A stretch of DNA of 64,000 bases from a bacterium. Its GTDB lineage: Bacteria > Planctomycetota > UBA8108 > UBA1146. The stretch lies in NCBI GenBank assembly GCA_029976805.1, contig JAPOLY010000002.1, positions 23,502-87,501 of the forward strand, read 5' to 3'. Shown in pieces: positions 47,264 to 61,563 of this stretch. Position 1 is the stretch's first letter. Each line of letters starts with the position of its first letter. The notes below the pieces were generated by a model. The model was not told where the DNA came from. It was given only the letters and a program-made list of their open reading frames with translations, and searched no databases. Position numbers and translations under genes: made by a program.

Positions 47264-49171
47264 TTGCGCCCAGTCGTTATGATCGTGAGCAGAAGAGGGA
47301 GCAATACTTTGGCCAGGGACACCAAGCCCAAACCAGGATGTGAAGGATTTCGCCGATCCGGCAACCGGACCCCCGGTCGTTCGGGAAAGCGACGGGCATG
47401 GGTTCTCGGATTTGTCCATCTCCTCATCGCAGGCCATCTGATTCACTGGTGGGTCACGGGGCGCACCCTCTCTCCTATCGAACCTTCAGAGAGTATGTAC
47501 ACTCTCGAAAATGGTCAGGTGAATGCGGGCTTCATCTTTTTTGTGGTCGCCATCTTGTCGACCGCAGTACTGGGGCGGTGGTTCTGTGGCTGGGCATGTC
47601 ACATGGTGGCACTCCAGGACCTGTGTGGCTGGATGATGAAAAAAGTCGGAATCACGCCCCGCCCCTTCCGCAGCCGCCTGCTCTCCCTGATCCCCTTCAT
47701 TCTCGCCTTCTACATGTTTCTCTGGCCCACCTTCAAACGGGAAGTGTTTCCCATCATTGAATCTTTCCTTCCGGGAGTGACCTCGTGGTTCGCCCCCGTG
47801 AAAGCATGGCCGGGATTCAGCAACCACCTTTTCGTGGAAGATTTCTGGGCCACATTCCCTTCGGTCATCGTCTCGATTCCATTCTTTCTGATCTGCGGGT
47901 TCGTCGTGGTCTACCTTCTGGGGGCCAAAGGTTTCTGTACTTATGGGTGCCCCTATGGAGCCTTCTTCAACATTGCTGACCGTGTCTCACCGATGCGCAT
48001 CGTCGCAGACATGTCGAAGTGTGAATCGTGTGGATTGTGCACGGCAAACTGCACCTCCAATGTTCAGATCTCCCGTGAAATCCGGGTTCATGAGCAGGTG
48101 GTCGATCCGGGCTGCATGAAGTGCCTCGACTGCGTGGATGTCTGCCCCAACAGCGTGCTTTCATTTGGTTTGGGGAAGCCAGGACTCTTGGCGAGCAAAG
48201 GTCCTGAAGCAAAAAAAATCGCCCGAAAATCTCAGCTCTCCTGGGGTGGTGAACTGGCACTCGCATTGGTGTTTGCCCTGAGCTGGTTCAGTTGGCGTGG
48301 AGTCTATGAGCAAGTCCCCCTGCTGATGGCCACCGGGATCGCACTGATGGTGACGTTTCTGAGTTGGAAAGCAGCTCAGTTGTTGAAGGAGAAGGATGTT
48401 TCCCTGCAGCAACAGCCCCTTCGGAGATCCGGGAGGTGGACTTCATCCGGCAAGTGGGTTCTCGTCACGGCTTTCCTCTGCCTGACGATGACGGCCTCTG
48501 CAGGGAAATCCCGTTGGGACCTCCAGCAGTCCTCCCAATGGATGGAGAAAGCGGCGGTCAATCTGGATCAGGTCTTTTTGCCGGGGAAACCTCCGGTCCC
48601 AGCCGAAGCCATCTCCGCGGCTGAAAGTGCGCTCGGGTTTTTACACTCACAACTCTCTGTCACCCGGGGTGGATTCGCCCTCTTTGAGCCGGAGGGGACC
48701 CGCCTTGAAGAACGACTCGGTTACATGAGCGCCGTGTCCGGTGATCTCGCTGAGGCCAAAAGATGGTGGAGCAGCGCTCTCGAAGAACCTCTCGAACCGA
48801 GCCACGATCTGGTGTTGCGTTTTGGCCAACTGATTGAAAAGCAGGAGGGCCCGAAGGCATTGGCCGACTGGCTGAACTCCTCCAGAGAGCGCTGGGGGTT
48901 AATCCCTCCCCTTGTCACTCTTCGGGGAATTCTGGCGCAGAAACAGGCTACTGCCTCTGTTCAGAATGGAAGCTACTTTGCTGCGGCCCTGCACTTGGAA
49001 GCCCTGATCCCCTGGATCGGACCCAACCCCGGCTTGCTCGATGACATGGGTCGACTGCTCGACTCAGCGGTCCCGAGTCAGGAAGTTGACGAGATGCGTC
49101 AACGCCTCAGCCAACTTCGATCCAACAACGTTATTCCGGGATCCACTTCAGGGACGGTTCAGGAAGACTGA
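47264..49171 (+). CDS. Polytopic 4Fe-4S binding membrane protein (CcoG/FixG/NapH-like N-part) with a long C-terminal helical domain of unknown function
   Basis: RWFCGWACHMVALQDL, GFCTYGCPYGAFFN, CESCGLCTANCTS and CMKCLDCVDVCPN. Start uncertain. Confidence 0.7.
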   Translation: MRPVVMIVSRRGSNTLARDTKPKPGCEGFRRSGNRTPGRSGKRRAWVLGFVHLLIAGHLIHWWVTGRTLSPIEPSESMYTLENGQVNAGFIFFVVAILSTAVLGRWFCGWACHMVALQDLCGWMMKKVGITPRPFRSRLLSLIPFILAFYMFLWPTFKREVFPIIESFLPGVTSWFAPVKAWPGFSNHLFVEDFWATFPSVIVSIPFFLICGFVVVYLLGAKGFCTYGCPYGAFFNIADRVSPMRIVADMSKCESCGLCTANCTSNVQISREIRVHEQVVDPGCMKCLDCVDVCPNSVLSFGLGKPGLLASKGPEAKKIARKSQLSWGGELALALVFALSWFSWRGVYEQVPLLMATGIALMVTFLSWKAAQLLKEKDVSLQQQPLRRSGRWTSSGKWVLVTAFLCLTMTASAGKSRWDLQQSSQWMEKAAVNLDQVFLPGKPPVPAEAISAAESALGFLHSQLSVTRGGFALFEPEGTRLEERLGYMSAVSGDLAEAKRWWSSALEEPLEPSHDLVLRFGQLIEKQEGPKALADWLNSSRERWGLIPPLVTLRGILAQKQATASVQNGSYFAAALHLEALIPWIGPNPGLLDDMGRLLDSAVPSQEVDEMRQRLSQLRSNNVIPGSTSGTVQED

Positions 49172-50121
49172 TCTTCTCCAGTCAGTTTCAGGTAGGCCTG
49201 CTCAAGACTTGCTCCCTCACGCACTTCATGGGGAGGCAAGCCCTTCTCTACCAGAAAACGGTACAGCTGAGACAAGGCGCCATTGAGGCCATTTTCCTGA
49301 TCCGCATTCAGACTGACCGTCAGTTGCTGGTCAGAGAACTCCACTTCGTTGATGTGGCTCAACTGCTTCAGCTCAACGACCAATTCCACCTCCACCTTTG
49401 CATCGAGGTGTATCTCAAAGCGGCGCGCCCGTCGTGTGACCTCTTCCACGGTACCACTGGAAATTAACTCGCCACCGACGATCACACCGACGGAATCGAT
49501 GAGGTCCTGTAACTCCAACAGGTTGTGCGAGGAAACGATGACCAGCGAAGATTCTGCCAACTCCCGCATCAGATGACGAATCTGACGTGCGTTGGCGGGG
49601 TCGAGGCCGGCTGTCGGCTCATCGAGGAGGACGATTTCAGGCTTGGCGAGAATCGCCTGAGCCACACCGAGTCTCTTGCCCATTCCATGAGAGAGAACAG
49701 CGGCTCCCCGAAAAAGTTCTGTCTCGAGGCCCACCCGCTGCATCACTTCGCGAACGCGCTGCTCCGCCACTTCCCCTTGATAACCATCCAGTTTCAACAG
49801 AAACAGAAGTTGATCAAAGATGGAGATGTCTCTGGCGAAGATGGCGTCCTGAGGCATGACGCCCACCCGACTCATGAGGGCAGAAGCCACGGGACTCGAT
49901 TCCCCCAATACTGAAATCGTCCCCTTCTGCAAAGTCAGGAACCCGGCGATCAGGGAAAACAGTGTCGTCTTGCCTGCACCATTGGGCCCGACCAGTCCGA
50001 CGATGCCTTTTTGGGGCAGAACCCAATCGATGTCCTTCAGGGCCTGCTTATCACCAAAGTGATGACTCAAGCCGCTGATGCGAATGGCTTCACCGGTGGT
50101 CACTTCAGAAGAGTTGCTCAA
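49159..50121 (-). CDS. ABC transporter ATP-binding protein
   Basis: Walker A GPNGAGKTT, signature LSHGMGKRL, Walker B IVLLDEPTAGLD. Confidence 0.9.
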   Translation of the reverse strand: MSNSSEVTTGEAIRISGLSHHFGDKQALKDIDWVLPQKGIVGLVGPNGAGKTTLFSLIAGFLTLQKGTISVLGESSPVASALMSRVGVMPQDAIFARDISIFDQLLFLLKLDGYQGEVAEQRVREVMQRVGLETELFRGAAVLSHGMGKRLGVAQAILAKPEIVLLDEPTAGLDPANARQIRHLMRELAESSLVIVSSHNLLELQDLIDSVGVIVGGELISSGTVEEVTRRARRFEIHLDAKVEVELVVELKQLSHINEVEFSDQQLTVSLNADQENGLNGALSQLYRFLVEKGLPPHEVREGASLEQAYLKLTGEDQSS

Positions 50122-51044
50122 AGGTCAGCCCTCCGGAATCTCCATGCAGCAAGAGTCATGAACAGAAGACTGTGGCCCAACGAATATGCCACGGCGGTGA
50201 AAACCTTGTCTCCGTCAGGAGAGAGCAGCTCGTGCGAGTATCCCCAGGGCAGCAGATACAGAAGATTACCAAGGGGATCCCATGCCTCCTGGAGACTGAG
50301 TGACAGCAACGGTGTCCCCACCGTGGCTCCCACTGCAGCAAGGAGAGCGACCATCGGGACCCTGAAGACCGCAGAACAAAGAACTCCAAGGGAAACATAG
50401 GGGGTCGCCAGACAACATAAAGAAAAAAGGCAACGTCCCGCCCATGGCACCATCGATTCAGTCGCCTCCGGAGGCAACATGATCGACAGATAGACCACGA
50501 CTGAGAACAAGAGCAGCAGTATCAAAACCCATGACAGGAACAGAGTCCCCAGCCAGCGCCCCACCAACAGGGACAGGCGGCTGGTTCGGGGAAGGAGATA
50601 GCGAACCGTTCTGTGTTGGACATCGCTGGAGATCGCCGTGAATGAACCCAGCGGCAAAATCAGAGGGAGGACCACTCCCAACAGCAATACCGTGATCGAC
50701 AGCAACATCGGATTATCCAGGATCAGATACCGTGCCCACATACCCAGATCGATCAGGTCTCCGGATTCCATTCGAGAGAGAATATCCGTGTCCGGTGGAA
50801 GATTTTCATCTTCCACGCCCATACGCAAACTTGCCGTCGCAAGGGCAAACCCGATGGCCTTGCTTGCGGATTCACTAAACTCTTCAGCTGTCGTAAACCC
50901 CAACTCCACAGGAGTGATCGAGAGATTCGCCAGTGATAAACCGATCAAGATCGTCAGAAAGATGAAGGCGACTCCCGAGCCGGTCCGCAAGGAGTGAATG
51001 ATCAGTTTTTGTGCATGGAGAAGAACATGACGAAATTGAATCAT
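50118..51044 (-). CDS. ABC-2 type transporter permease
   Basis: Six predicted TM helices. ATGA overlaps with the ATPase gene and the upstream membrane protein gene. Confidence 0.65.
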   Translation of the reverse strand: MIQFRHVLLHAQKLIIHSLRTGSGVAFIFLTILIGLSLANLSITPVELGFTTAEEFSESASKAIGFALATASLRMGVEDENLPPDTDILSRMESGDLIDLGMWARYLILDNPMLLSITVLLLGVVLPLILPLGSFTAISSDVQHRTVRYLLPRTSRLSLLVGRWLGTLFLSWVLILLLLFSVVVYLSIMLPPEATESMVPWAGRCLFSLCCLATPYVSLGVLCSAVFRVPMVALLAAVGATVGTPLLSLSLQEAWDPLGNLLYLLPWGYSHELLSPDGDKVFTAVAYSLGHSLLFMTLAAWRFRRADL

Positions 51045-51625
51045 CCGGATTTCCCCTGAGCTTGAAGAAAGTCACGGCGAAAAATCACATGGAGCATGAA
51101 GATCAGGAAGAGAGGGTAGAAAATTTGGCGTGCAATGGAGAGTCCACTTCCCCTGAGATACGTTTCCGGCAACCAGTCGATGTTCAAAATGTAAAAGGCT
51201 GCCAAAGCGACGCCGCCGAGGGTGCCGAGCCAACGCCCGATCAAATTGCTGCGCTTCAGCAATCCCCAAATCGAAACCAGAAGCAGCAGTGTTGCTACCA
51301 ATCCGATCAGGGCGAGGATTTGCAGATCCATGGGAGTGAGCCCCTCATCGAGGAGAGAATTCAGGTATCTTCGACGCCAGCCCCGGCCCCGCACCTCGCC
51401 CTCTGCCACCTCCATGAGATCATAGGAAGTCATGAATCGCTGGATCGTCGTTCCACCGACGGCAAGAGCAAAGAACCCATTGAGAACAGAGAGAGCGGTC
51501 AGCCCACCGGGACGATCACTCGCTGCCAACGGCGTTTTCCCCGAGAAGCATCCGCAGTTCAGAAACGTGCTCAGACTCCAGAGCCACCTGTTGACGTGCG
51601 AACTCCTCGAGAACCACGTCCCCAC
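51041..51625 (-). CDS. Small integral membrane protein, start uncertain
   Basis: Hydrophobic helices (ILALIGLVATLLLLVSIWGLL, LGGVALAAFYILNI, IFYPLFLIFMLHVIF). The 5' part of the ORF overlaps the ferritin-like gene, so the true start may be the Met at 51433. Confidence 0.5.
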   Translation of the reverse strand: MGTWFSRSSHVNRWLWSLSTFLNCGCFSGKTPLAASDRPGGLTALSVLNGFFALAVGGTTIQRFMTSYDLMEVAEGEVRGRGWRRRYLNSLLDEGLTPMDLQILALIGLVATLLLLVSIWGLLKRSNLIGRWLGTLGGVALAAFYILNIDWLPETYLRGSGLSIARQIFYPLFLIFMLHVIFRRDFLQAQGKSG

Positions 51626-51965
51626 TACCCTCTACCACCTCGAGAAACTCTTTGTACGCATCCAGAGCCGCCTGCTCAAAGAGCAGTGCCGTTTGAAGAG
51701 CTTCGACACCCGTGCACTTTTCACCCGTCAACTCGAGATTGATTTTGGGTTTTGGGGTTCCCCCCACCTGAAGAATCTTCTCGGAAACCTGCTGTGCATG
51801 CTCGACCGTTTCTTCATGATTTTCCTGAAGCACCTTTTGGATGACCAATCGATCGATTCCCTGAACCAGTGTGCCCAGATGCAAGTATCGGATCGAAGCT
51901 TCCAACTCTTCCGCCAACAATTCATTCAGGCGGCTCAAAGCAACCTCGCGGGAATATTCACTCAT
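51516..51965 (-). CDS. Ferritin-like diiron domain protein (bacterioferritin/Dps-like)
   Basis: Four-helix diiron pattern ELEASIRYLH, EETVEHAQ, FEQAALDAY and LESEHVSEL. Start MSEYSREV at 51965 overlaps the regulator stop by 8 nt. The track ORF extends to 52082. Confidence 0.75.
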   Translation of the reverse strand: MSEYSREVALSRLNELLAEELEASIRYLHLGTLVQGIDRLVIQKVLQENHEETVEHAQQVSEKILQVGGTPKPKINLELTGEKCTGVEALQTALLFEQAALDAYKEFLEVVEGSGDVVLEEFARQQVALESEHVSELRMLLGENAVGSE

Positions 51966-52515
51966 CGTCTTTATCCTTGCTTTGCTCTTCAGACCTGCTC
52001 TGCAATCGCTCGGAGATGGTCTCGATCTCTTTTCCTGGGAACGCCTCAACCCGGCCTTCACGGATGCTGTCCTCGAGAGCATTCACTTGCCGGTCACGAT
52101 CCGAAGAAGAATCCGAAGCATCTTCTCTTCGATCGATGTAAATCGCCAGCGCCTCAGCAGTCAGATCGCTGACCAGGTGCTCAATCTTGCAGGCGTCCAT
52201 TTCCGCCAGATCCGCGGGCAGGCCGAGGGATTTTTCCAAAAACGCCTTAAACAGGACCCGCTTGGTGTGAATTCCCCGTGCAATCCGCTGGCCTTCATCA
52301 GAAAGCCCCAAATGCTTGTGCTGGTCTTCCACCACCAGCCCTCTTTGCCGGAGCCCCTTGAGGGAGACGGAAACACTTCCGCGGGTGATACCCAGCTTTC
52401 GGGCAACATCCGACACTCGGGCATACCCCTGATCTTCCAGGAGTTGCTGAATCGCCGTCAAATGGTGGGCAGCGGAATGACTTACGGGGTTCTGATCGAA
52501 CTCTCGCCAATCCAT
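51958..52515 (-). CDS. DtxR/MntR-family metal-dependent transcriptional regulator
   Basis: From MDWREF: wHTH segment YARVSDVARKLGITRGSVSVSLKGLRQRGLV, then a dimerisation/metal-site helix region and an acidic tail. GAGGAGGAGG RBS upstream. The track ORF extends to 52773. Confidence 0.8.
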   Translation of the reverse strand: MDWREFDQNPVSHSAAHHLTAIQQLLEDQGYARVSDVARKLGITRGSVSVSLKGLRQRGLVVEDQHKHLGLSDEGQRIARGIHTKRVLFKAFLEKSLGLPADLAEMDACKIEHLVSDLTAEALAIYIDRREDASDSSSDRDRQVNALEDSIREGRVEAFPGKEIETISERLQSRSEEQSKDKDDE

Positions 52516-52532: not shown

Positions 52533-52548
52533 GTTTGGGTACCCAAAC
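52533..52548. promoter_or_regulatory. Perfect 16-bp palindrome GTTTGGGTACCCAAAC, candidate operator (copy 1 of 3)
   Basis: Lies 18 nt upstream of the DtxR-family regulator start, in the intergenic region shared with divergent feoA. Related copies at 58921..58936 and 60308..60323. Confidence 0.55.
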
Positions 52549-52705
52549 GGGTTGATGAGCACTCAAACAGCATGTAAAAATAGGCCTGTTGAGCACTGTG
52601 TTCCTGGATCTGCAGATTAATGCCCGATTCACGTAAGGACAAGTGTTCGTAAAAGTTGCGAGGCTCACTTGAGCCTTCATCTCAGGACTTTCGAACTGGA
52701 GATCC

Positions 52706-53008
52706 ATGCAAACCGGCAACCCCAGCCCTGAAAAGAGTGTGCGACCCTCGCTGGAACAGGCGGCTCTCAGCACGTCTGCTCAGGTCAGATCACTCTTCGA
52801 CATGAAATTGGGAGATCGGGGCCGCCTGGTAGAAGAGTCGATCCCCCAGAATCAGCGCCCCCTCCTGGAAGCGATGGGCATGTGCGGGGATTGTGAACTC
52901 CGGGTTTGCCACAATTCCGGTTCCTGTATTCTGGAGATCGACGGACAAAGGGTAGGGCTCAGCGAAGAGATCGCCTCTTCCCTTCGGGTTCTCCCCCTGG
53001 ACAGTTGA
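52706..53008 (+). CDS. feoA: FeoA family protein
   Basis: FeoA/SH3-like pattern LFDMKLGDRGRLVEE...LLEAMGMCGDCELRV...ILEIDGQRVGLSEEIASSLRV. Confidence 0.75.
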   Translation: MQTGNPSPEKSVRPSLEQAALSTSAQVRSLFDMKLGDRGRLVEESIPQNQRPLLEAMGMCGDCELRVCHNSGSCILEIDGQRVGLSEEIASSLRVLPLDS

Positions 53009-53133
53009 TCCAGATTTCCTTCCTTGAACACGCTTTCCTTTCACAAATCTGATTCATTGTTTTTACAACCGCAAAGTAGTCTACATTCCGTAGTCTGCAT
53101 TCCAGTGTTGATTTTCAGGGTTGAACAGGGTGG

Positions 53134-53823
53134 GTGAAGACTGACATGACCCGATTCTACAAGCAGTCCGGATTTACCCTTGCTCGCTCCAACACCTCCA
53201 CCCGTTGGCTCCTAACGCTCTTTTTTCTGACCGTCATCGCTGGCTGTGTCGTTGCTGCAGTTCAGTACTCCAGCAGTGCAGGAGGATTCTCCGTCGACAA
53301 TGCCCGAGAATGGGTTCTGGGCAATGAGGACGACCTCGATGCTGAAGAATTGATGTCCGAAAAAACTCCCAGGGAACTGCTCTCCTTTATTCATGACCAT
53401 ATCTTCTCTCTGGGAATGTTGCTCTTCGTTGTCCTGCACCTGTTTGAACTGACTCCCTGGTCGACTGGGGTCAAGGTCACCCTTTCCTTCACAGGCTTTG
53501 GAAGTCTTGTCGGGTTGCTCTTCTCACCCCTCGCCATTGCTTCCGGAAGTTCAATGGCACTCTTCACCCAGATCATCGGTGGAAGCCTTCTGTTGCTCAG
53601 TCTGGTACTGGGATCTTTGGCGTGCCTCGACGAGCTGTGGTGGGCCCCTCGCCGAAGAAATCGAGCGGGCAAGGCCGATCCCCCGGCATCAAATCCGCTC
53701 TTTCCGGCCAAAGGCTCGGGAAAGCCTGACTCGGACAACCCTGACTCGGGAAGCTGCCCCATGGGCTTTGGATCGGATCAAAAAAATCCCGGGAAACCTT
53801 CCTCAGAAGATTCCCCGGGATAA
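53134..53823 (+). CDS. Membrane protein of unknown function (about 4 TM helices, Pro/Gly/Ser-rich C-tail)
   Basis: ORF with hydrophobic helices, directly downstream of feoA. No motif recognised. Confidence 0.5.
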   Translation: MKTDMTRFYKQSGFTLARSNTSTRWLLTLFFLTVIAGCVVAAVQYSSSAGGFSVDNAREWVLGNEDDLDAEELMSEKTPRELLSFIHDHIFSLGMLLFVVLHLFELTPWSTGVKVTLSFTGFGSLVGLLFSPLAIASGSSMALFTQIIGGSLLLLSLVLGSLACLDELWWAPRRRNRAGKADPPASNPLFPAKGSGKPDSDNPDSGSCPMGFGSDQKNPGKPSSEDSPG

Positions 53824-53849
53824 TCCATGACGCATGGGAATGCGTGGCT

Positions 53850-55019
53850 TTACTTACTCTTTTCAGTGGCCTGTTCGGCTTTCGCTTCCTGAACCAGCAA
53901 CTCGATGGCGTCATCCATTTCTTTGCCACGGACATCCTTGTAACGAATGATTCCCTTGGCGTCGATCAGGTAGATCGTCGGCCAACCGGTCACGTTCCAA
54001 CGCGTTGAAATCGGTCCGCCCGGACTCCCATCGTAAAAACTGAGCCAGTTGATCTTGTTTTTCTCGACCACTTCACGGGCTTTTTCAATGGAGGAATCCG
54101 AGTTGATTCCGACGATGGCAAAAGGATCTGCAGAGTATTTCTCCACGAGCGACCGCTCGTGTGGGTACATGGCCCTGCAGGGACCTCACCAATCACCCCA
54201 GAAATCAAGCAGGATCACCTTGCCTCGGAAAGAGGACAGCTGCATCAGCTTGCCGGAGATCTCCTTGCCGATGATTTCGGGTGCGACACAACCGACCTGA
54301 AGATTCTTCATTTCGAAAAGGTCGCCTTTGACCTTGTCGGCATAAACGGATCTCCCGTAAGAGACATCTCCATACTCATCCTGGACCCTTTTGAGCAGAG
54401 CCAGGCCCTCACTGCGGGTTTCTTCCTTCTTGCCCTTGATCTTGGCAAGAGAATAACAGCCGGCGGCCTGAACTTCCCTGTGAGGAGAGTCACTGACGAC
54501 CACGCTGAGAAAATCGCACATGGCTGGCGCCATGGCCTCCGAGCAGTAGTGGGAGTAGCGCAAGACGTCGGCCAGTTTCTCGTTCTTCAGGTAGTGAGTC
54601 TTGAGCGCCGACATGGCCTTTTCAGCCATCCAACCGGCAGATTCACTTCTGCCAGCCAAAGCCAGCATTTGGTCGCAAGCACCGAGGGCTGCTTCTGTCC
54701 CCGCATACTTGTCGATGGTTTTGAGCATCTCCGGGCCGACGACCATTACTGGATCGAGTGCCGGATCGAGTTCGATCTTCTCCATCTCTTTATCGCTGAG
54801 ACCTTTTTCCCGAGCCTCTGTCAGGGGCTTGTAATAAGCCTCCTGAGCCTTATTCATTTTTTTGTTGATCTCTTCAAATGCCTTTTCAGCGGCCGCTTCC
54901 ATCTTTTCGTCTGCGACCCCCACTGAAACGGGGGAATAAGAGAAAGCCACTGCCGGACCCGACAGCATAAAAGCGATTACGAGACAAACGGTCCCGTATC
55001 GACGAAGACGAGGAATCAT
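53850..55019 (-). CDS. TlpA/ResA-like thiol-disulfide oxidoreductase, candidate selenoprotein (in-frame UGA at 54186..54188 read as Sec in a UxxC redox motif)
   Basis: Track ORFs 54186..55070 and 53850..54170 are in the same frame. Read-through gives ...GKVILLDFWGDW-U-GPCRAMYPHERSLVEKYSADPFAIVGINSD...GWPTIYLIDAKG, a canonical thioredoxin-fold W-C-G-P-C context with TGA at the first Cys. Neither half is a complete fold alone. Signal peptide MIPRLRRYGTVCLVIAFMLSGPAVAFS from 55019. Confidence 0.75.
54128..54185 (-). promoter_or_regulatory. SECIS-like stem-loop immediately 3' of the in-frame UGA
   Basis: In the mRNA, the lower stem pairs CUGCAGGG with CUCUGCAG. The upper stem CACGAGC/GCUCGUG (7 bp) closes a GGUC apical loop that starts 32 nt after the UGA. 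Confidence 0.6.
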
Positions 55020-55112
55020 GGGATACCCTTCCAATTTTGACCTTCCGGTCGATCCACATCCGTGGATCAAACTGAAAACAAAGATACCACAGTGAAATAA
55101 ATTGGCAGGGTC

Positions 55113-55232
55113 CTATTTGGAGCAGGGTCCACAATCTCCTCCGGACGCGCGGCTCCGCTTCCGGACCAGCAACAGGAGAGCGATAACTGCGAGGAGAGTC
55201 ACGATCCAGAATTGGGGATCGGATTCAAACAT
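55113..55232 (-). CDS. FeoB-associated Cys-rich small membrane protein (39 aa; below the ORF-track length cutoff)
   Basis: MFESDPQFWIVTLLAVIALLLLVRKRSRASGGDCGPCSK: one TM helix, a basic stretch and a C-terminal Cys pair. Starts 7 nt after the feoB stop. Confidence 0.6.
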   Translation of the reverse strand: MFESDPQFWIVTLLAVIALLLLVRKRSRASGGDCGPCSK

Positions 55233-55238
55233 GGATCC

Positions 55239-57182
55239 TCACTCCCACCCGAGAAGCAGAATCAGCATGCGCATGGCTGCAGCCATGCCCCAAGCCAGAA
55301 GGCTCATCCATGTCAACTGAAGGATCGCCCACTTCCATGCCCCGGACTCCTTACGAGTGACCGCAAGCGTGGGCAGGCATTGCATTGCCAGCACGAAAAA
55401 GACCAACAATCCAGCAGCCGACGAGGGCGTCAAAAGAGGCGAACCATCATCGCGCCTGGAGTTTCTGATCTTGTCCATCAAAGGTTCCGCCTCTGCCTCT
55501 TCACCGGTTCCCAATAGAACACTGGTTGAGGACACAAAAACTTCCCTGGCGGCAAAACTGGCCATGATCGAAATCGACAACTGCCAATCGGCTCCGATGG
55601 GTGCAAACACCGGCTCCACACTCTTGCCGATACGACCCAGGTAGGAAGCGGCTGTACTCTCTCGAGAAGCGAGAGAATCCGCTTCCTCGACGAGCGCTTC
55701 GGCTTCCTCTACAGATTCCACCGCTTCAGCTTTGGCTCGCAAATCGGCGACTGCTGAACTCTCCGTACTCTTGGGGTAGGTTCCCAACCACCAGAGAACA
55801 ATACACATCAGCAGAATGACGGTTCCCGCATTTTTCAGGAAGATCCAACCACGCTGGCAGGCGATTTTCAGGGAGTCCACCAATGACGGTCGCTGAAAGG
55901 GAGGCAGCTCGAGAACCAGATCGGGACTCGGCCCTGGCAACAGGAAACGCCGAACTATCCAGGCGCTGAAGACCGCTGCCAATGCTCCCAGCAGGTAACA
56001 CCCGGCAAAAGCCAATCCGGCAATGAAGGGATTTTCAGGAAAGAGCAACCCCACCAGTAATTGGTAAACCGGCAATCTGGCGGCGCAAGAGAGGAATGGA
56101 GCAACCAGAATCGCTGCCAGACGATCCTTGCGATCCGGAATCAAACGCGTGCACAAAATTCCCGGAATGGCACAGGCGTGACTCGACAACAAGGGAACGA
56201 AGGAATGCCCCGGCAGGCCGAACGGCCTCAGCCAACGATCCGCAACCAATGCGGCACGGGCCAGATAACCGGTTTCCTCCAAAATACTGATGAGGAAAAA
56301 CAGCAGCAAAACCTGAGGCAGGAAAATCAGTGTACCCGATACCCCACCGATGATTCCCTCGACGACGAGACTTCTGACCTCGCCTTCCGGCATGCTTGTA
56401 GAAACCCAATCCGCGATCAAAGCAAAGGTATTGTCGAGCCATTCCATGGGAATCTGGGCCAACCAGAACACACATCCAAAGAGCAGGCTCATGATGATGA
56501 AAAAGGTCGTCAGCCCCCAGAAGGGATGTAGCAGGAATCGATCGAGGCGATCCTCTTTTTCCCTTCTCTTTCGGGCCTCCTCTGGTCGAACCGGGCGTGT
56601 CACCGCTGCGACAGTATCGTCGACCCATTTCGAGTCGAGAACCGTATCCTGGGGACTCACGGGCCGCTCTGCCGCTGCCAGAATAAATTCTTTGAGGCCT
56701 GCATTTCGGTGAGCATGCCGATGTGCCAGTTCCAATACAGGGACCTGAAGCATCTCCTCCAAGCGCTGGAAGTCGATCTCAACGCCCCTGAGTCGTGCTT
56801 CATCGGTTCGGGTCACAATGACCGCATTGGGCGTTCCTTTTTGCATGCACTCGGCCAACAGGTTCATGTTTCTGCGCAAGCTGACCGCATCGATCACACT
56901 GACGATCAAGTCGGACTTTTGGGGGGCACCCAAATGTTGTTGGCAATGACGGGATTCGGGAAGGTCCAGTTGAAGCCCGTAGCATCCGGGGAGATCCGTG
57001 ACCTCTACATCGATGTCTCCCCAGCGATCCTTACCCACCAGCGATTCTGCAGTGATCCCGGGAAAATTGGAGACTCTGGCATTCCCCGTCACAAGGGCAT
57101 TGAAGAGGGTGGATTTTCCAACGTTGGGATTACCGGTAACAGAGATGCGGAGTGTTTTTCCGGATTGTTCTTGGTTCTTCAC
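55239..57182 (-). CDS. feoB: Ferrous iron transport protein B
   Basis: N-terminal G-domain GNPNVGKSTLFNAL and DLPG, followed by a polytopic membrane domain. About 650 aa. Confidence 0.9.
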   Translation of the reverse strand: MKNQEQSGKTLRISVTGNPNVGKSTLFNALVTGNARVSNFPGITAESLVGKDRWGDIDVEVTDLPGCYGLQLDLPESRHCQQHLGAPQKSDLIVSVIDAVSLRRNMNLLAECMQKGTPNAVIVTRTDEARLRGVEIDFQRLEEMLQVPVLELAHRHAHRNAGLKEFILAAAERPVSPQDTVLDSKWVDDTVAAVTRPVRPEEARKRREKEDRLDRFLLHPFWGLTTFFIIMSLLFGCVFWLAQIPMEWLDNTFALIADWVSTSMPEGEVRSLVVEGIIGGVSGTLIFLPQVLLLFFLISILEETGYLARAALVADRWLRPFGLPGHSFVPLLSSHACAIPGILCTRLIPDRKDRLAAILVAPFLSCAARLPVYQLLVGLLFPENPFIAGLAFAGCYLLGALAAVFSAWIVRRFLLPGPSPDLVLELPPFQRPSLVDSLKIACQRGWIFLKNAGTVILLMCIVLWWLGTYPKSTESSAVADLRAKAEAVESVEEAEALVEEADSLASRESTAASYLGRIGKSVEPVFAPIGADWQLSISIMASFAAREVFVSSTSVLLGTGEEAEAEPLMDKIRNSRRDDGSPLLTPSSAAGLLVFFVLAMQCLPTLAVTRKESGAWKWAILQLTWMSLLAWGMAAAMRMLILLLGWE

Positions 57183-57225
57183 TTACGCCCCCTGAAAAAG
57201 CACTGCTCAATCAGCCAGAAGAGTC

Positions 57226-58842
57226 TCAGCGCTGAGTGCGTCCGACAAAACGCGGCTGGCTCTCACCCTCAATCAGAATCACTGCGGAAGCATTCGGGCA
57301 GTTATTCAGGATCGATCGTGCCCCCTCTTGTCCGAGAAGAGCAACAGTGGTGCTCAAGGCATCCGCCTCGGTGGCACTGCTGGAAAGCACTGAAGTGGTC
57401 AGAATACGTCCTTGCGAAGAATTGTCGAGAAGTTGCACCAGGTGATCCCCGCGTTCATAGCACGCGGTGGTCGCCAGTGAGGAGCGAATCAGTGCAAGCT
57501 CATGAAGGACAGATTTGCCATCCCGGGGGTCGTGGATCCCCACAGCCCATGATTTTTCACCGGGGGGCGGATCGAGAGCCAGCAGTTGGCCTCCGAAATC
57601 GAGAAGAGCACGGGAGCAACCGTGAGACTCGAGTACGACGGCCGCACGATCGAGGGCATAACCCTTGCCGATTCCTCCCAAGTCGAGAATCAGACCGGGA
57701 CGCAACAGAGTGATCGTCTCCTTTTCCCGATCCACCTTGACGCTGCGGAAGCCATCCTTCTTCAGAGTCAAATCGAAGGCTCCACCACTCTCCCTGGACA
57801 TGGCGAGTGCTTTTTCGACGACCTCGATGGTTTCCCGGGCAACCTTGACCGGCTCTCCCACAGGTGCCGCTTCTACCCTCAAGACGTCGCTCCCCGCTTT
57901 CCAGCGGCTGTGCAACGATTCCAGGCGCTCTACTTCAGAATAAGCGGCTTCCACGGCCTTGAGTGCCTGCTCTCCGTAGACCTCCATCTTGAGGACGGTT
58001 CCCATGGCGGGACGAGCCCTCTCGACAGGTGCATCTTTATCTCCCAACCCTGATCTGAGCACAGAAACTTCCTCAGGGCCCGCAGCAGAAACCGGTTCCG
58101 CCGAGGCGGGTTCACCGTAAGCCAGAGATGAGCCGGAAAGAGATTGCCAAACCAGATCCAGATTCTGTTTCTGCGAAACCTCAACAGTCGCCATCGATCT
58201 TCGCACTGCGCGAACAGCCGCGCGGGCAGAGAGAGTCGCTCCTGAGAGATTACGGATTCCGCGGTGGAGCTTCAGCGACTTGCCGAGTTTTTTATTTCTG
58301 AACTGCCGGGTGAATCGCGGAGATTCAATCTCTTGGCCGATGTGCTCTCGGTAAACAAGAACCTGAAGGTCGAGGACACGAAGATCATTGTCGAGAGCAA
58401 CAAAGAAAGTGATGGGACGATACTTACCGACCTCATCGAGGATCACCACAGATCCCAGTCTGTTGCCTTGGGGAGAGGTGACCCGGAACAGGGTGGTCTG
58501 TTGGTCCCTGGTTCTCACCCTGCTGATCTCAACGATCTTCTTCTTCACTTCCCCTTCGACTGGAACATGACAGCGCTCCACGTGTACATCCGCACTCCAC
58601 AGATCTGCGATCAGATCCCTGCTGAAGAAGCCGGAGGTCTTTTCGGGGAGCGTCGTCTCAGTCGACACACCCGTCTCCGAAGAGACGGATTCAGATGTAC
58701 CTGGCCCAAGGGCCAGTGCCTGAGAAGAAACCGACAGAACCAACAGCAAACCCGCAACCAACCCGCGGTACCGGAAGCAGACCCGCGACTCGCGGATCTG
58801 TTCGGAATGCGTGCTGAAATCACTGCAGGAAACGGGGCTCAT
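57226..58842 (-). CDS. Secreted fusion protein: FMN-binding domain (RnfG/NqrC/NosR type) plus ApbE-like FAD:protein FMN transferase
   Basis: Signal segment RYRGLVAGLLLVLSVSSQALA. FMN_bind-like segment ending NLSGATLSARAAVRAVRRSM (SGAT flavinylation motif). ApbE-like MGTVLKMEVYG, FDLT, DLGGIGKGYALDRAA and ATEADALSTTV. The start at 58842 is preferred because the track TTG start at 58938 lies inside palindrome copy 2. Confidence 0.75.
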   Translation of the reverse strand: MSPVSCSDFSTHSEQIRESRVCFRYRGLVAGLLLVLSVSSQALALGPGTSESVSSETGVSTETTLPEKTSGFFSRDLIADLWSADVHVERCHVPVEGEVKKKIVEISRVRTRDQQTTLFRVTSPQGNRLGSVVILDEVGKYRPITFFVALDNDLRVLDLQVLVYREHIGQEIESPRFTRQFRNKKLGKSLKLHRGIRNLSGATLSARAAVRAVRRSMATVEVSQKQNLDLVWQSLSGSSLAYGEPASAEPVSAAGPEEVSVLRSGLGDKDAPVERARPAMGTVLKMEVYGEQALKAVEAAYSEVERLESLHSRWKAGSDVLRVEAAPVGEPVKVARETIEVVEKALAMSRESGGAFDLTLKKDGFRSVKVDREKETITLLRPGLILDLGGIGKGYALDRAAVVLESHGCSRALLDFGGQLLALDPPPGEKSWAVGIHDPRDGKSVLHELALIRSSLATTACYERGDHLVQLLDNSSQGRILTTSVLSSSATEADALSTTVALLGQEGARSILNNCPNASAVILIEGESQPRFVGRTQR

Positions 58843-58920
58843 CGACTTCTTCCTCTGATTGAAAGGGACGGTTTCGGGTTCCTTTTGCGGACCCGCCGAA
58901 AATAGAACTGATTTGGTACC

Positions 58921-58936
58921 GTTTGGCAACCCAAAC
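58921..58936. promoter_or_regulatory. Near-perfect palindrome GTTTGGCAACCCAAAC, candidate operator (copy 2 of 3)
   Basis: 79 nt upstream of the FMN-binding/ApbE start at 58842. Same 7-2-7 architecture as copies 1 and 3. Confidence 0.5.
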
Positions 58937-59060
58937 AAATGACTTCTTTTACTGCTTTTGATCAGATTTACCCAAATTCAGCCTTCAGACTCTCATTGCC
59001 CATATTTTGACAAGGATCCCCACTCCCACCCCGAAGGGCGAGAGTAGGGGAAAAAAGGGC

Positions 59061-60215
59061 TTAGAAGTAAGTCGCTGCTGAGAAGATGAAGGTTCCGTCG
59101 GGGTCCTCTGAACCCTCGATCGACTCCTGCTCGTAGTCGAATTTGAGAACCGTCTCATCCGTCGGTCGCATGTTGAAGCCGTAAGTCATACGGCTGGTCA
59201 CCGGGCCGGTGAGATCCTGCTCTTCCCAACGGATCGTCACAGCACAAGAGGAGTCATCCCCCCACAGGTTGGTGACGAAATCCGGGAAGAACTTTTTGGA
59301 GACTTCGATGGAAGTTGCGCTGATATCGTCGGGAACTCCACCGGCGATCGCCGCTGCGTCGCGGTCGATGGAGACATTCCCCAACTCAAAGTTCAGGATC
59401 GTCGCCCCCACTGCCTCAACCCAGCTGCCCAGATCGGTCGTAATATCGATGACGGTAATACTCAGATCGAGGTCACCGGCGTCATCCCAGGGACCAGTCC
59501 AATTTGAGAATCCAATTTCGGTTCCGAGCACAGGGCTGTAAGTGAAACGCCCCACAAAACTGGCGGGACGATCCCCTTTATTGGTTTTCAGGCTGGGACG
59601 TCCTCCACGAATACCGCTGGAAGTGTTGAAGTTGTACCCACCGGCACCGTCTTCACCCTGGAAACCGTTGACGGCATAGAACTCCATTCCCCAAGTTCCA
59701 TCATCCGCCCCCCACACTCCTCCCAAACCGGCACTGGTCATCGTTGAAGGAACGATAGAGCGGGCCACGAAAGGGCGGTTCGTCAACTGGCGCATGGGCG
59801 AGTCGTGGTAAAGGTTGGTGGAACCCAATGGGATCAGAATCGCTCCCGATCTGAGGGTCCAACCACCAAAATCCACATCGGCATAGGCGTATTCAACTTT
59901 GGTTTCACCATCACCTCTGGGAGCGCTGGCACCTCCATATTCGAATTCGATTTCGGCGGAGAAACTCACATTTTCGCTGATGTTCGCATCCAGCATTGGA
60001 ACCAGTCGATGCTGTTTGAAATCGAGACGATCACTGTTCATGAACAACTCGAGATCCAGGTATCCCCCCAGGCGAATATCCCGATCGCCTTCTGCCGCAG
60101 GGCGATTGTCGTAACGGTCAACCTGAGCTTCGAGAGCTCCAGAACTGGACAGAGTCAAAGCCAGTACACAGACCAAAAGTGTGATTCTGGTGCAGATCAC
60201 TTCGTTCGAAGGCAT
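59061..60215 (-). CDS. Outer-membrane beta-barrel porin-like protein
   Basis: Signal peptide ending SSGALEAQ, alternating amphipathic strands rich in G/Y/F/T, and a C-terminal aromatic residue (...SAATYF). Confidence 0.55.
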   Translation of the reverse strand: MPSNEVICTRITLLVCVLALTLSSSGALEAQVDRYDNRPAAEGDRDIRLGGYLDLELFMNSDRLDFKQHRLVPMLDANISENVSFSAEIEFEYGGASAPRGDGETKVEYAYADVDFGGWTLRSGAILIPLGSTNLYHDSPMRQLTNRPFVARSIVPSTMTSAGLGGVWGADDGTWGMEFYAVNGFQGEDGAGGYNFNTSSGIRGGRPSLKTNKGDRPASFVGRFTYSPVLGTEIGFSNWTGPWDDAGDLDLSITVIDITTDLGSWVEAVGATILNFELGNVSIDRDAAAIAGGVPDDISATSIEVSKKFFPDFVTNLWGDDSSCAVTIRWEEQDLTGPVTSRMTYGFNMRPTDETVLKFDYEQESIEGSEDPDGTFIFSAATYF

Positions 60216-60307
60216 TCTTTCGTTTCCTCTCTGAGCGGGGGCGAAATGGAACTATCGCACCTCAAGTAAAATCAGCATTCTGGCGTTGGTTATATAGCCA
60301 CTCTTGT

Positions 60308-60323
60308 GTTTGGCAAGCCAAAC
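60308..60323. promoter_or_regulatory. Palindrome GTTTGGCAAGCCAAAC, candidate operator (copy 3 of 3)
   Basis: Perfect 7-bp arms with a 2-bp spacer. 93 nt upstream of the porin start and 59 nt upstream of the divergent methyltransferase start. Confidence 0.5.
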
Positions 60324-60381
60324 AATTGAAATTGTCGCCAAAATACCTGAATTTTGTCAATTTCCCGCAAACCTCCATAGG

Positions 60382-61563
60382 ATGGAATCCATGAGGGATA
60401 TCTGGCAAAAACTGATCTCGGGTCAACTCGATTCTCTGCTCCAAATGGCGCAGGACACCCCTCAGGGTGACGTTGCAGCCATCTCCAGGTTAAGGCGACA
60501 TGGGTCTCTCGAAGAGGTCTCCGTGGTCCTTGAAGCTCTCGAGGCTCGCCGTCGCTCCCGGGGTCGGCTTCGTGAATCCCCATCATGGCTGATGGATCGT
60601 GAAGGCATGGAACAAGCCACCCGAACGACCGTCGCCGAGCACAAGGCACAGAGAATGCGATCTGCCATCGGCTCTGAAACTGTCATCGACCTCTGTTGTG
60701 GAATCGGCAGTGACACGGCAGCTCTCGCCCAATCCGGACCGGTGATCTACGTCGACCATGATCCGGTTCGGGTCGAATTGACCCGCTTCAATCTCACCCG
60801 GTCAGCGAAGAATCCCAGCAACTCACACCCTCTCGTTGCGGACGCAAAGTGCCTGCCCCTCCCCCCCTTGCCACTGCATGTCGATCCCGCACGCCGCGTC
60901 GATGGCCGCCGGGTTCACGACTTTGAAGGAATGGTGCCGGGACCTGAGATACTGAACAGACTGATCGAGAGACATCATTCCGTTGCATTGAAGTGCGGCC
61001 CCGGTATTTCGGTCGAGGATTTACCTCCCGGTGAGATCGAGTGGCTTCAGGATGGCAACGACCTCGTCGAAGCCACACTCTGGTGTGGAAATCTGGCCCA
61101 ATCAGCCAGACGCAGTGCAACACTTCTGCGCCAATCCCTGACGATCAGCGGTGAACAGGAACCTCTTCAACAGAGCAGCCTGAAAAATCCCGCCTTTCTG
61201 CACGAACCCTGTTCCGTCATCGAGCGCTCCGGATTGGTGTGCAAGGTTCAGGGAGAAGTCGCTGCCGGTGAATGGCATCCCGGCCTCGGCTGGCTCGCCG
61301 GTGAAGAAGAGAGAACCAGCCCCTGGTTTCGCAGTTTTGCAGTGGTCGCCCAGATGGGGTGGCACGAAAAGAAAATCATCGACTGGTTTCGCCAACAGGG
61401 GTGTTCACCTGCAAGCATCAAAACCCGGGGGGTGCAGGAAAATCCCTCACAGTTGATCAAACGCTTCAAGGGAGACCCGGGGCCGTGGATTCTCGCACTG
61501 CTCAGAAGAGGGCGTCAGATTGAAGCCTGCATCCTCAAAGAGCTGAATCCATTGGCAGGTTAA
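60382..61563 (+). CDS. Class I SAM-dependent methyltransferase (THUMP-like C-terminal domain type)
   Basis: SAM motif I VIDLCCGIGSDTAALA. Start MESMRDIW at 60382 is preferred over the track start at 60304. Confidence 0.65.
   Translation: MESMRDIWQKLISGQLDSLLQMAQDTPQGDVAAISRLRRHGSLEEVSVVLEALEARRRSRGRLRESPSWLMDREGMEQATRTTVAEHKAQRMRSAIGSETVIDLCCGIGSDTAALAQSGPVIYVDHDPVRVELTRFNLTRSAKNPSNSHPLVADAKCLPLPPLPLHVDPARRVDGRRVHDFEGMVPGPEILNRLIERHHSVALKCGPGISVEDLPPGEIEWLQDGNDLVEATLWCGNLAQSARRSATLLRQSLTISGEQEPLQQSSLKNPAFLHEPCSVIERSGLVCKVQGEVAAGEWHPGLGWLAGEEERTSPWFRSFAVVAQMGWHEKKIIDWFRQQGCSPASIKTRGVQENPSQLIKRFKGDPGPWILALLRRGRQIEACILKELNPLAG

Follow-up and report, generated by a model that had tools for sequence, protein, structure and literature searches.

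The DtxR and IdeR repressors of Corynebacterium, Mycobacterium and Saccharopolyspora recognize a 19-bp box, TTAGGTTAGSCTAACCTAA, in which four CCTAA repeats accommodate two dimers, and it is their metal-loaded holo-form that represses (PMC8464063). MntR, known from Bacillus subtilis and Escherichia coli, places one dimer on an 18-bp site of 9-bp inverted repeats, with a span of about 20 bp and a conserved A7:T-7 (PMC11275975). DR2539 of Deinococcus radiodurans also binds as one dimer, on a 21-bp pseudo-palindrome where the two DNA-binding domains contact successive major grooves and read about 5 bp apiece; its target dr1709 is termed a manganese transporter in the same preprint (bioRxiv 10.1101/2024.02.12.579695). 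FeGenie also mentions that feo operons can contain feoC or fur (PMC7005843). Here we describe a stretch of 64,000 nucleotides from a marine member of the Planctomycetota (assembly GCA_029976805.1, contig JAPOLY010000002.1, positions 23,502 to 87,501; hereafter the window), in which three copies of a palindrome lie in an island of metal-related genes that also encodes a DtxR-family protein. We propose that the three palindromes are the operators of this metalloregulator, encoded at 51958-52515, and estimate the probability of this reading at roughly 0.75, based on sequence comparisons. Enrichment of the motif beside homologues of the regulator across phyla, together with co-variation between the motif and the recognition helix, means that the link to the regulator exceeds mere adjacency.

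Like DtxR and IdeR, to which the regulator is related in protein family and fold, the present system appears to combine a primary metal site that includes a Cys-Glu-His triad with a palindromic operator at iron-uptake promoters. The operator sequences themselves, however, are unrelated, with TGTTTGG-N4-CCAAACA here versus the DtxR/IdeR box, and a remark in the first-pass annotation of the window that the motif differs from the classical box is thereby borne out (PMC8464063). The resemblance to MntR extends to the operator, since position 7 from the centre is an invariant A:T here too, and because the conserved blocks lie one helical turn apart, as in the single-dimer geometry of MntR, we infer one dimer per site. 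In contrast to MntR, which targets mntH and mntABC, the putative targets here are Feo genes, and where tandem sites occur they are 55 nt apart, versus 19-bp arrays for cooperative activation. As with FeoC and Fur in other feo operons, the regulator gene is found in or beside feoAB, but the linked regulator here belongs to the DtxR family.

The analysis covered the window together with 20-kb loci around regulator homologues in related genomes. A profile search with one genome per species gave 80 loci encoding such homologues, which are referred to by their L numbers where they need to be told apart. The regulator and the three palindromes (given without strand) are as follows:

51958..52515, minus strand: DtxR-family regulator, 185 aa, with Pfam domains PF01325 and PF02742; the proposed binder of the palindrome.
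52533..52548: copy 1, GTTTGGGTACCCAAAC, a candidate operator between the divergent dtxR-like and feoA genes, with an orthologous site in L001-L009.
58921..58936: copy 2, GTTTGGCAACCCAAAC, candidate operator upstream of the FMN_bind/ApbE, feoB and thioredoxin-fold genes and downstream of the porin gene.
60308..60323: copy 3, GTTTGGCAAGCCAAAC, a candidate operator for the porin gene, which it precedes in a spacer that is also that of a THUMP-like methyltransferase gene.

The motif is real, non-random and intergenic. The pattern GTTTGGSNNSCCAAAC matches the 64 kb exactly three times, each time between genes, and never in 100 dinucleotide-preserving shuffles of the window, so that the three copies listed in the first-pass annotation are confirmed at the same coordinates. 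Since intergenic DNA makes up about 7.5% of the island between 49 and 61.6 kb (by the sum of gene coordinates), it is improbable that three out of three matches would fall there by chance. Allowing up to two mismatches in the 12 arm positions of GTTTGG-N4-CCAAAC adds a single match, at 51835 inside the ferritin-like gene, which is at chance level (2.7 expected), and every match with at most one mismatch is intergenic, both in the window and across the related loci, which amount to about 180 kb. The regulator ATG (52515, minus strand) is 17 nt from copy 1, which sits inside the 190-nt spacer that the regulator has in common with the divergent feoA; the FMN_bind/ApbE ATG (58842) is found 78 nt downstream of copy 2, and the porin ATG (60215) 92 nt downstream of copy 3. 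The 7-2-7 inverted-repeat architecture that had been ascribed to all three copies is perfect in copy 1 only, the seventh pair of copy 2 being C/C. The conserved unit, derived from 20 non-redundant sites from relatives, is instead a 6-4-6 core (GTTTGG/CCAAAC) within an 18-bp palindrome, tTGTTTGG-SWWS-CCAAACAa.

Among the related genomes, the one with L001 is practically conspecific, with protein identities of 94-98%, and was not counted as independent. The whole island is present in L002-L007, and the regulator side in L009 and, rearranged, in L008. The regulator is 59-70% identical in L002-L007 by profile-search segment, or 68-78% by tblastn segment, and 54% identical in L008 and L009; over L002-L009 as a whole, the best tblastn segments give 54-77%. 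The homologues come from uncultured marine Planctomycetota, and the DNA runs in which the locus was found are metagenomes from seawater, estuary and marine samples. Over this distance the palindrome is conserved upstream of orthologous operons. On the regulator side, all eight loci L002-L009 carry GTTTGG-N4-CCAAAC with at most one mismatch in the feoA/regulator spacer, and in L002-L007 the palindrome also precedes the first gene of the feoB operon. This first gene encodes the porin in L002, L003, L005 and L006 and is a porin remnant in L004, while in L007, which has neither porin nor ApbE, the palindrome precedes feoB itself. Copy 3 thus has orthologues in L001-L007, and copy 2 only in L001 and L002, making it a lineage-specific extra site. 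L003 (at 2568 and 2623) and L005 (at 2760 and 2815) carry two sites upstream of the porin, 55 nt start to start, and no site between porin and ApbE; such paired operators could allow cooperative binding or looping. The doubled sites in these two loci, and the extra internal site in the window, L001 and L002, indicate that the number of sites evolves, while the sites always track promoters. In L001-L009, some 180 kb altogether, no further match with at most one mismatch was found.

When the sites are aligned on the palindrome, mean pairwise identity drops from 0.98-1.00 in the arms to about 0.5 in the 4-nt spacer and 0.28-0.37 in the flanks. For the copy 3 site the arms are identical (1.00), and for the copy 1 site they reach 0.98, with flanks at 0.28-0.54, the sole exception among the flanks being a conserved promoter-like stretch beside copy 1. 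The rare substitutions in the arms are without compensation on the opposite arm, which argues for sequence-specific recognition rather than a hairpin. In L004, L005 and L007, the palindrome on the feoB/porin side is followed after about 10-15 nt by a separate conserved element, GTGGTCCCTTG (cgtGGTCCCTTG in L004 and L007); it is absent from the window, and the flanks of these three loci are otherwise unrelated.

In 27 of the 80 loci, from phyla that include Planctomycetota, Latescibacterota, Verrucomicrobiota, Kiritimatiellia and KSB1, the core GTTT-N8-AAAC is found in the 300 nt that precede the homologue. Its density is 1.13 per kb in these upstream regions versus 0.024 per kb elsewhere in the loci, a 47-fold enrichment, and the control spacings N6, N7 and N9 gave no match in the 300 nt upstream of the homologues. 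With one mismatch allowed, the core is present upstream in 46 of 79 loci, compared to 5-9 loci for each of four control regions of equal size, and 43 of those 46 sites lie no more than 150 nt from the start codon. Furthermore, a comparison of motif variants with helix variants shows that the two inner bases of each arm change together with the recognition helix:

Helix ITRGSVSV[ST]LKGL, motif GTTTGG..CCAAAC: the Planctomycetota clade from which the window derives.
Helix ITRGSASLTLKALK, motif GTTTTA..TAAAAC: Latescibacterota and others.
Helix ITPGSASIMIKSL, motif ATTTGA..CCAAAC: Gemmatimonadota.
Helix ITRGSCSISLKPLK, motif GTTTGR..TCAAWC: Verrucomicrobiota and Kiritimatiellia.

The variable helix residues, 48 and 50, align with Val39 and Lys41 of B. 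subtilis MntR, and the variable motif bases are those at positions 3-4 from the centre. As Lys41 lies against half-site base pairs 4-5 in the cryo-electron microscopy structure of MntR on DNA (PMC11275975), the co-variation of helix and motif would be structurally plausible. Taken together, the conservation footprint, the 47-fold enrichment and the helix co-variation support, as far as sequence can tell, what the first-pass annotation had put forward, namely a candidate operator of the DtxR-family regulator within an autoregulated, metal-responsive regulon.

Within 3.5 kb of the regulator, 36 of the 80 loci have feoB, 20 have a gene for a ferritin-like protein and 10 have a porin homologue, which marks this as a Feo-linked regulator family. 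In the KSB1 locus L027, a site with the GTTT-N8-AAAC core, GTTTATACACTAAAAC, is located about 100 nt upstream of a porin homologue. An unbiased scan of metagenomes with the pattern TTGTTTGG-N4-CCAAACAA gave mostly chance matches, in contigs rich in AT. Among the matches listed, 6 of 120 loci (L083, L110, L111, L154, L167 and L196) have feo or DtxR-family genes beside the site, and in L167 the 20-mer stands between the gene for a solute-binding protein and a more distant, divergent DtxR-family gene; GC-rich matches that were spot-checked had unrelated neighbours (NusG, formyl transferase, OEP). The scan is therefore useful as confirmation (L167), not for extending the regulon. In six Gemmatimonadota loci (L041, L044, L045, L052, L054 and L080), the regulator gene is preceded not only by the ATTTGA..CCAAAC site at about -76 but also, closer to its start at about -47, by a second palindrome of unrelated sequence, GGCAACA-CGAT-GGTTGCC, which may be the site of another factor.

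By both its domains and its primary-site ligands, as judged from sequence and model, the regulator is a member of the DtxR/MntR superfamily. PF01325 (Fe_dep_repress) matches it with an E-value of 1.6e-07 (31.8 bits versus a 26-bit cut-off) and PF02742 (Fe_dep_repr_C) with 1.3e-10 (41.6 bits versus 27). Its AlphaFold2 (AF2) model (pLDDT 85) predicts a winged helix, made up of a helix-turn-helix and a two-strand wing, followed by a helical dimerisation domain and a helical tail. This tail, residues 130-185, is predicted to form two helices at the place where an SH3 domain would be, unlike DtxR and IdeR with their SH3-like third domain, and no SH3 or FeoA-like Pfam match was found on the protein. 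Foldseek returned DR2539, MntR, DtxR and IdeR with a probability of 1.00, the best being DR2539 (root-mean-square deviation 1.4 A over 118 residues), although DR2539 is a Mn sensor with an ancillary third domain and is only 28% identical to the regulator. Sequence matches in the PDB are to MntR, DR2539, IdeR and DtxR, of which MntR, likewise of two domains, is the closest. The NCBIfam scores are nevertheless far below the equivalog cut-offs, both for DtxR (NF053665, 30.9 bits versus 290) and for MntR (NF008273, 69.6 versus 153; NF003025, 51.5 versus 138), which places the regulator in neither of these named groups. The predicted ligands of its primary metal site are:

His17: Met10 in DtxR, Asp8 in MntR.
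Cys109: Cys102 in DtxR, Glu99 in MntR.
Glu112: Glu105 in DtxR, Glu102 in MntR.
His113: His106 in DtxR, His103 in MntR.

These four residues, as well as His13, Ser14 and Asp107, are invariant in 34 homologues, and His18 is nearly so. The set thus differs from that of DtxR by the exchange of Met10 for a histidine, and from the Asp/Glu/Glu/His set of MntR, which additionally has Glu11 and His77, where the regulator has Thr20 and Arg86. The ancillary site of DtxR is not conserved, its ligands His79, Glu83 and His98 being replaced by Arg86, Lys90 and Glu105; this pairing follows the ungapped phmmer offset of query residues 19-123 to DtxR 12-116. According to a rule that Guedon and Helmann reportedly set out in 2003, Cys and Met ligands in DtxR and MntR go with Fe, and Glu and Asp with Mn. 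The Cys ligand, together with the feo and ferritin neighbourhood, therefore favours Fe(II), and we regard Fe(II) as the probable metal sensed by this protein.

The other genes of the island are:

49159..50121, minus strand: ABC ATPase, from open reading frame and domain search; downstream in the regulator operon, with synteny in L001-L009.
50118..51044, minus strand: ABC-2 permease, from open reading frame and domain search; downstream in the regulator operon, with synteny in L001-L009.
51041..51625, minus strand: membrane protein, from open reading frame and domain search; downstream in the regulator operon, with synteny in L001-L009.
51516..51962, minus strand: ferritin-like protein, 148 aa, Pfam PF00210; its start overlaps the regulator stop codon.
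52706..53008, plus strand: feoA (Pfam FeoA), divergent from the regulator and syntenic in relatives.
53134..53823, plus strand: 229-aa membrane protein after feoA, divergent from the regulator and syntenic in relatives.
53850..55070, minus strand: protein of thioredoxin fold, encoded by the gene that closes the feoB operon and has a TGA in frame; the C-terminal part of the protein is DsbE/ResA-like (NCBIfam).
55239..57182, minus strand: FeoB ferrous-iron transporter (NCBIfam TIGR00437, 382 bits, exceeding the cut-off).
57226..58842, minus strand: secreted FMN_bind and ApbE fusion (Pfam PF04205 and PF02424; NCBIfam RnfG/NqrC-like and ApbE).
59061..60215, minus strand: outer-membrane porin, a predicted beta-barrel, first gene of the uptake operon.
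60382..61563 (start approximate), plus strand: THUMP-like methyltransferase, divergent from the porin and sharing the operator-bearing spacer.

Pfam and NCBIfam domain searches found no other gene with a DNA-binding domain in the island. A Pfam search of the porin gene product of the window gave no match, while PF07396 (Porin_O_P) was found on some of its homologues; its AF2 model (pLDDT 87) is a 16-strand beta-barrel with structural matches to OmpF, OmpC, OmpT and OprP, and this prediction bears out the identity given to it in the first-pass annotation. The ferritin-like gene directly follows the regulator in L001-L009 and adjoins it in 20 of the 80 loci, and in a Phycisphaerales metagenome-assembled genome (MAG) the ferritin-like and DtxR domains are fused into one protein of 323 aa (P0079). 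This fusion, and the overlap of regulator stop and ferritin start in the window, suggest that the ferritin-like protein may work with the sensor instead of serving as a bulk store, and hint at a physical or functional partnership between the two. The in-frame TGA of the thioredoxin-fold gene, at 54186-54188, reads ...FWGDW-U-GPC..., so that selenocysteine would stand for the first Cys of a CxxC motif. The frame split by TGA into two parts is kept in L001-L008, and the gene probably encodes a selenoprotein that is co-expressed with FeoB. At the edge of the island (47264-49171, plus strand), a NapH/NosR-like 4Fe-4S membrane protein is encoded, which is kept in L001-L009 and L012. Together with the FMN_bind/ApbE fusion it resembles a split version of a NosR-type flavin electron-transfer module, and this could act as a periplasmic ferric reductase that feeds FeoB. 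The THUMP-like methyltransferase gene is always divergent from the porin/feoB operon, with the operator spacer in common, in L001-L007, L110 and L154. Metatranscriptome contigs, of which there are 5-11 short ones per run, show that the porin, feoB, ApbE, thioredoxin-fold, feoA and ferritin genes are transcribed, and are too sparse for placing 5' ends.

Promoters were predicted from sigma-70-like consensus elements, a class of prediction to be read in the light of how poorly the promoters of the host phylum are known:

52552..52580, plus strand: feoA-facing element TTGATG-17-TAAAAA, read from sequence; its -35 box starts 3 nt after copy 1.
52614..52642, minus strand: predicted regulator-facing element TTGTCC-17-TAATCT.
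60331..60360, minus strand: porin-facing element TTGACA-18-GACAAT, from a consensus scan; it ends 7 nt before copy 3.

By regular expression, the feoA-facing TTGAYG-17/18-TANNNT, whose equivalent in relatives is TTGACN-18-TANNNT, stands against the palindrome in 7 of the 9 non-redundant loci, the window and L002 having TAAAAA and TAAAAC in place of the TANNNT of the -10 box. The regulator-facing TTGTCY-17-TAYCCT (searched as TTGNNN-17-TANNCT) is found in 9 of 9, at 89-114 nt from the palindrome, which would put copy 1 at about +59 to +74 of the regulator leader. The distance of 7 nt between copy 3 and the porin-facing element means that this operator would span about +1 to +17, and L001, L002, L004 and L007 likewise have a -10-like hexamer (GACTAT, CACTAT or TAAATA) that precedes the palindrome by 6-8 nt. 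In the dtxR/feoA spacer, as in its equivalents in L002-L009, the two conserved elements face each other, and from the predicted starts the 5' leaders would overlap by about 20 nt in antisense. An imperfect inverted repeat beside copy 1, GTTTGA-N6-ATCAAC, was considered as well, and is more readily accounted for by the -35 box and spacer of the predicted promoter that faces feoA. Behind the porin stop codon, at 59016-59060, a GC-rich terminator-like hairpin, CCCCTACTCTCGCCC-TTCG-GGGTGGGAGTGGGG, stands beside a T-run, and this fits with ApbE-feoB having an internal promoter of their own, at which copy 2 would act.

In the mechanism that we propose, one homodimer would bind each 18-bp site, consisting of two 9-bp inverted repeats (TGTTTGGsw/wsCCAAACA), with its two recognition helices in successive major grooves and the half-site centres 10 bp apart. 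Binding would require the metal-loaded form, most probably with Fe(II). When iron is sufficient, the holo-repressor would shut the porin-FMN_bind/ApbE-feoB-selenothioredoxin operon through copies 3 and 2, with copy 3 acting at or just past the predicted transcription start and copy 2 at the internal promoter. Similarly, feoA would be repressed through copy 1 where it abuts the -35 box, and at both the porin/feoB and the feoA promoters it is RNA polymerase that would be blocked. The dtxR-ferritin-like-ABC operon would then be subject to negative autoregulation, with copy 1 acting from within the leader as a roadblock or an occluder.

Several points do weigh against this picture. Under it, high iron would shut down the ferritin-like protein and the ABC-2 exporter, whereas genes for storage or efflux usually call for the reverse and are activated by IdeR and MntR. 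With the promoters as predicted, the centre of copy 1 would be at about -48 of the feoA promoter and about +66 of the regulator leader, and thus on neither core promoter. Furthermore, 33 of the 79 homologue loci (about 40%) lack the core upstream even with one mismatch allowed, so that not all members of the family autoregulate through this motif. Others concern the metal: the homologues at JGI are labelled 'Mn-dependent DtxR family', which along with the missing SH3 domain gives the regulator the appearance of an MntR-type Mn sensor, and some FeoB paralogues are said to carry Mn. The same regulator on the same operator could then respond to Mn(II) or another metal, with the FeoB-type transporter importing Mn. 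The two-domain build, top sequence and NCBIfam matches to MntR models (however far below the cut-offs) and the best structural match, a Mn sensor, all agree with this. However, the label is a generic COG name, and the residues that replace Glu99 and Asp8 of MntR are an invariant Cys, as in DtxR, and an invariant His; under the ligand rule given above, Cys or Met goes with Fe. The neighbours, moreover, are feoA, a feoB that passes its TIGR00437 cut-off, a ferritin-like protein and a flavin module that possibly reduces Fe(III). We therefore consider Mn or another metal as effector unlikely, though it is the most probable of the alternatives.

The remaining alternatives dispense with the regulator altogether. 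The palindrome might be bound by a factor encoded elsewhere, for instance one of the Fur family, in which case the proximity of the DtxR-like gene would reflect no more than a shared metal regulon. Fur boxes are A/T-rich, and the palindrome would not seem to resemble them. The DtxR homologue, on the other hand, is the only gene constantly beside the motif across several phyla, and the motif variant follows the recognition helix of that homologue, and this co-occurrence and co-variation make another binder very improbable. It is harder still to maintain that the palindrome works as an RNA hairpin, in the 5' leaders or in the gap between porin and ApbE, with a role in stability, attenuation or termination. 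Each copy can fold a hairpin of 6-8 bp (-6.8 to -8.0 kcal/mol), copy 2 is located between two co-oriented genes, and copies 1 and 3 would be transcribed from the predicted promoters, but the hairpins are no more stable than those of shuffled sequences (z -0.8 to -1.4) and match no Rfam family. It is also the sequence of the arms, and not merely their pairing, that is invariant across genomes whose proteins are 54-77% identical, with no compensatory changes, and the enrichment upstream of the regulator genes is specific to one spacing and found in divergent orientation. The porin gene, in addition, already has its separate terminator-like hairpin. Finally, chance, or a selfish repeat such as a fragment of a repetitive extragenic palindrome (REP) or miniature inverted-repeat transposable element (MITE) with no regulatory role, would be in line with the exact 20-mers of this kind in many unrelated and mostly AT-rich metagenome contigs. 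Yet the number of matches expected in the window is zero, the 16-18 bp are not embedded in a longer repeat and have unrelated flanks, and the sites are kept at orthologous promoters over deep divergence; we give this last explanation next to no weight.

Returning to the reading of the palindromes as operators of the DtxR-family regulator, a wider claim can be put forward more tentatively, with odds that we place somewhat short of even: the site may be the code by which a large subfamily of DtxR-type Fe(II) sensors, proteins of two domains and linked to Feo, recognizes its operators. Helix residues 48 and 50 would then set the two inner bases of the half-site, and in the marine planctomycete from which the window derives the sensor would control a complete iron route. 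The subfamily has the signature motifs HSAAHH and D-x-C-K-x-E-H and is spread over Planctomycetota, Verrucomicrobiota/Kiritimatiellia, Latescibacterota, Gemmatimonadota and KSB1. From outer membrane to cytoplasm, the route would consist of a dedicated porin, a periplasmic flavin-dependent ferric reductase (FMN_bind/ApbE, NosR-like), FeoAB and a selenocysteine-containing thioredoxin-fold protein.

The class of mechanism is already textbook, with a metal-loaded dimer of the DtxR family, a palindrome, repression of uptake genes and autoregulation. What is gained lies in breadth and annotation, as the regulon prediction may be transferred to many uncultured lineages. Literature searches found no description of the subfamily, its pairing with feo, the motif, or DtxR regulation in Planctomycetes, and to our knowledge the metal regulation of Planctomycetota and their relatives is essentially uncharacterised. 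Iron limits growth in much of the ocean, where Planctomycetota and relatives are common. If the operator is validated, it would offer a natural co-variation series for studying how the helices of DtxR-family proteins specify bases, iron regulons would become predictable directly from the MAGs of several phyla, and iron stress in situ could be read from metatranscriptomes.

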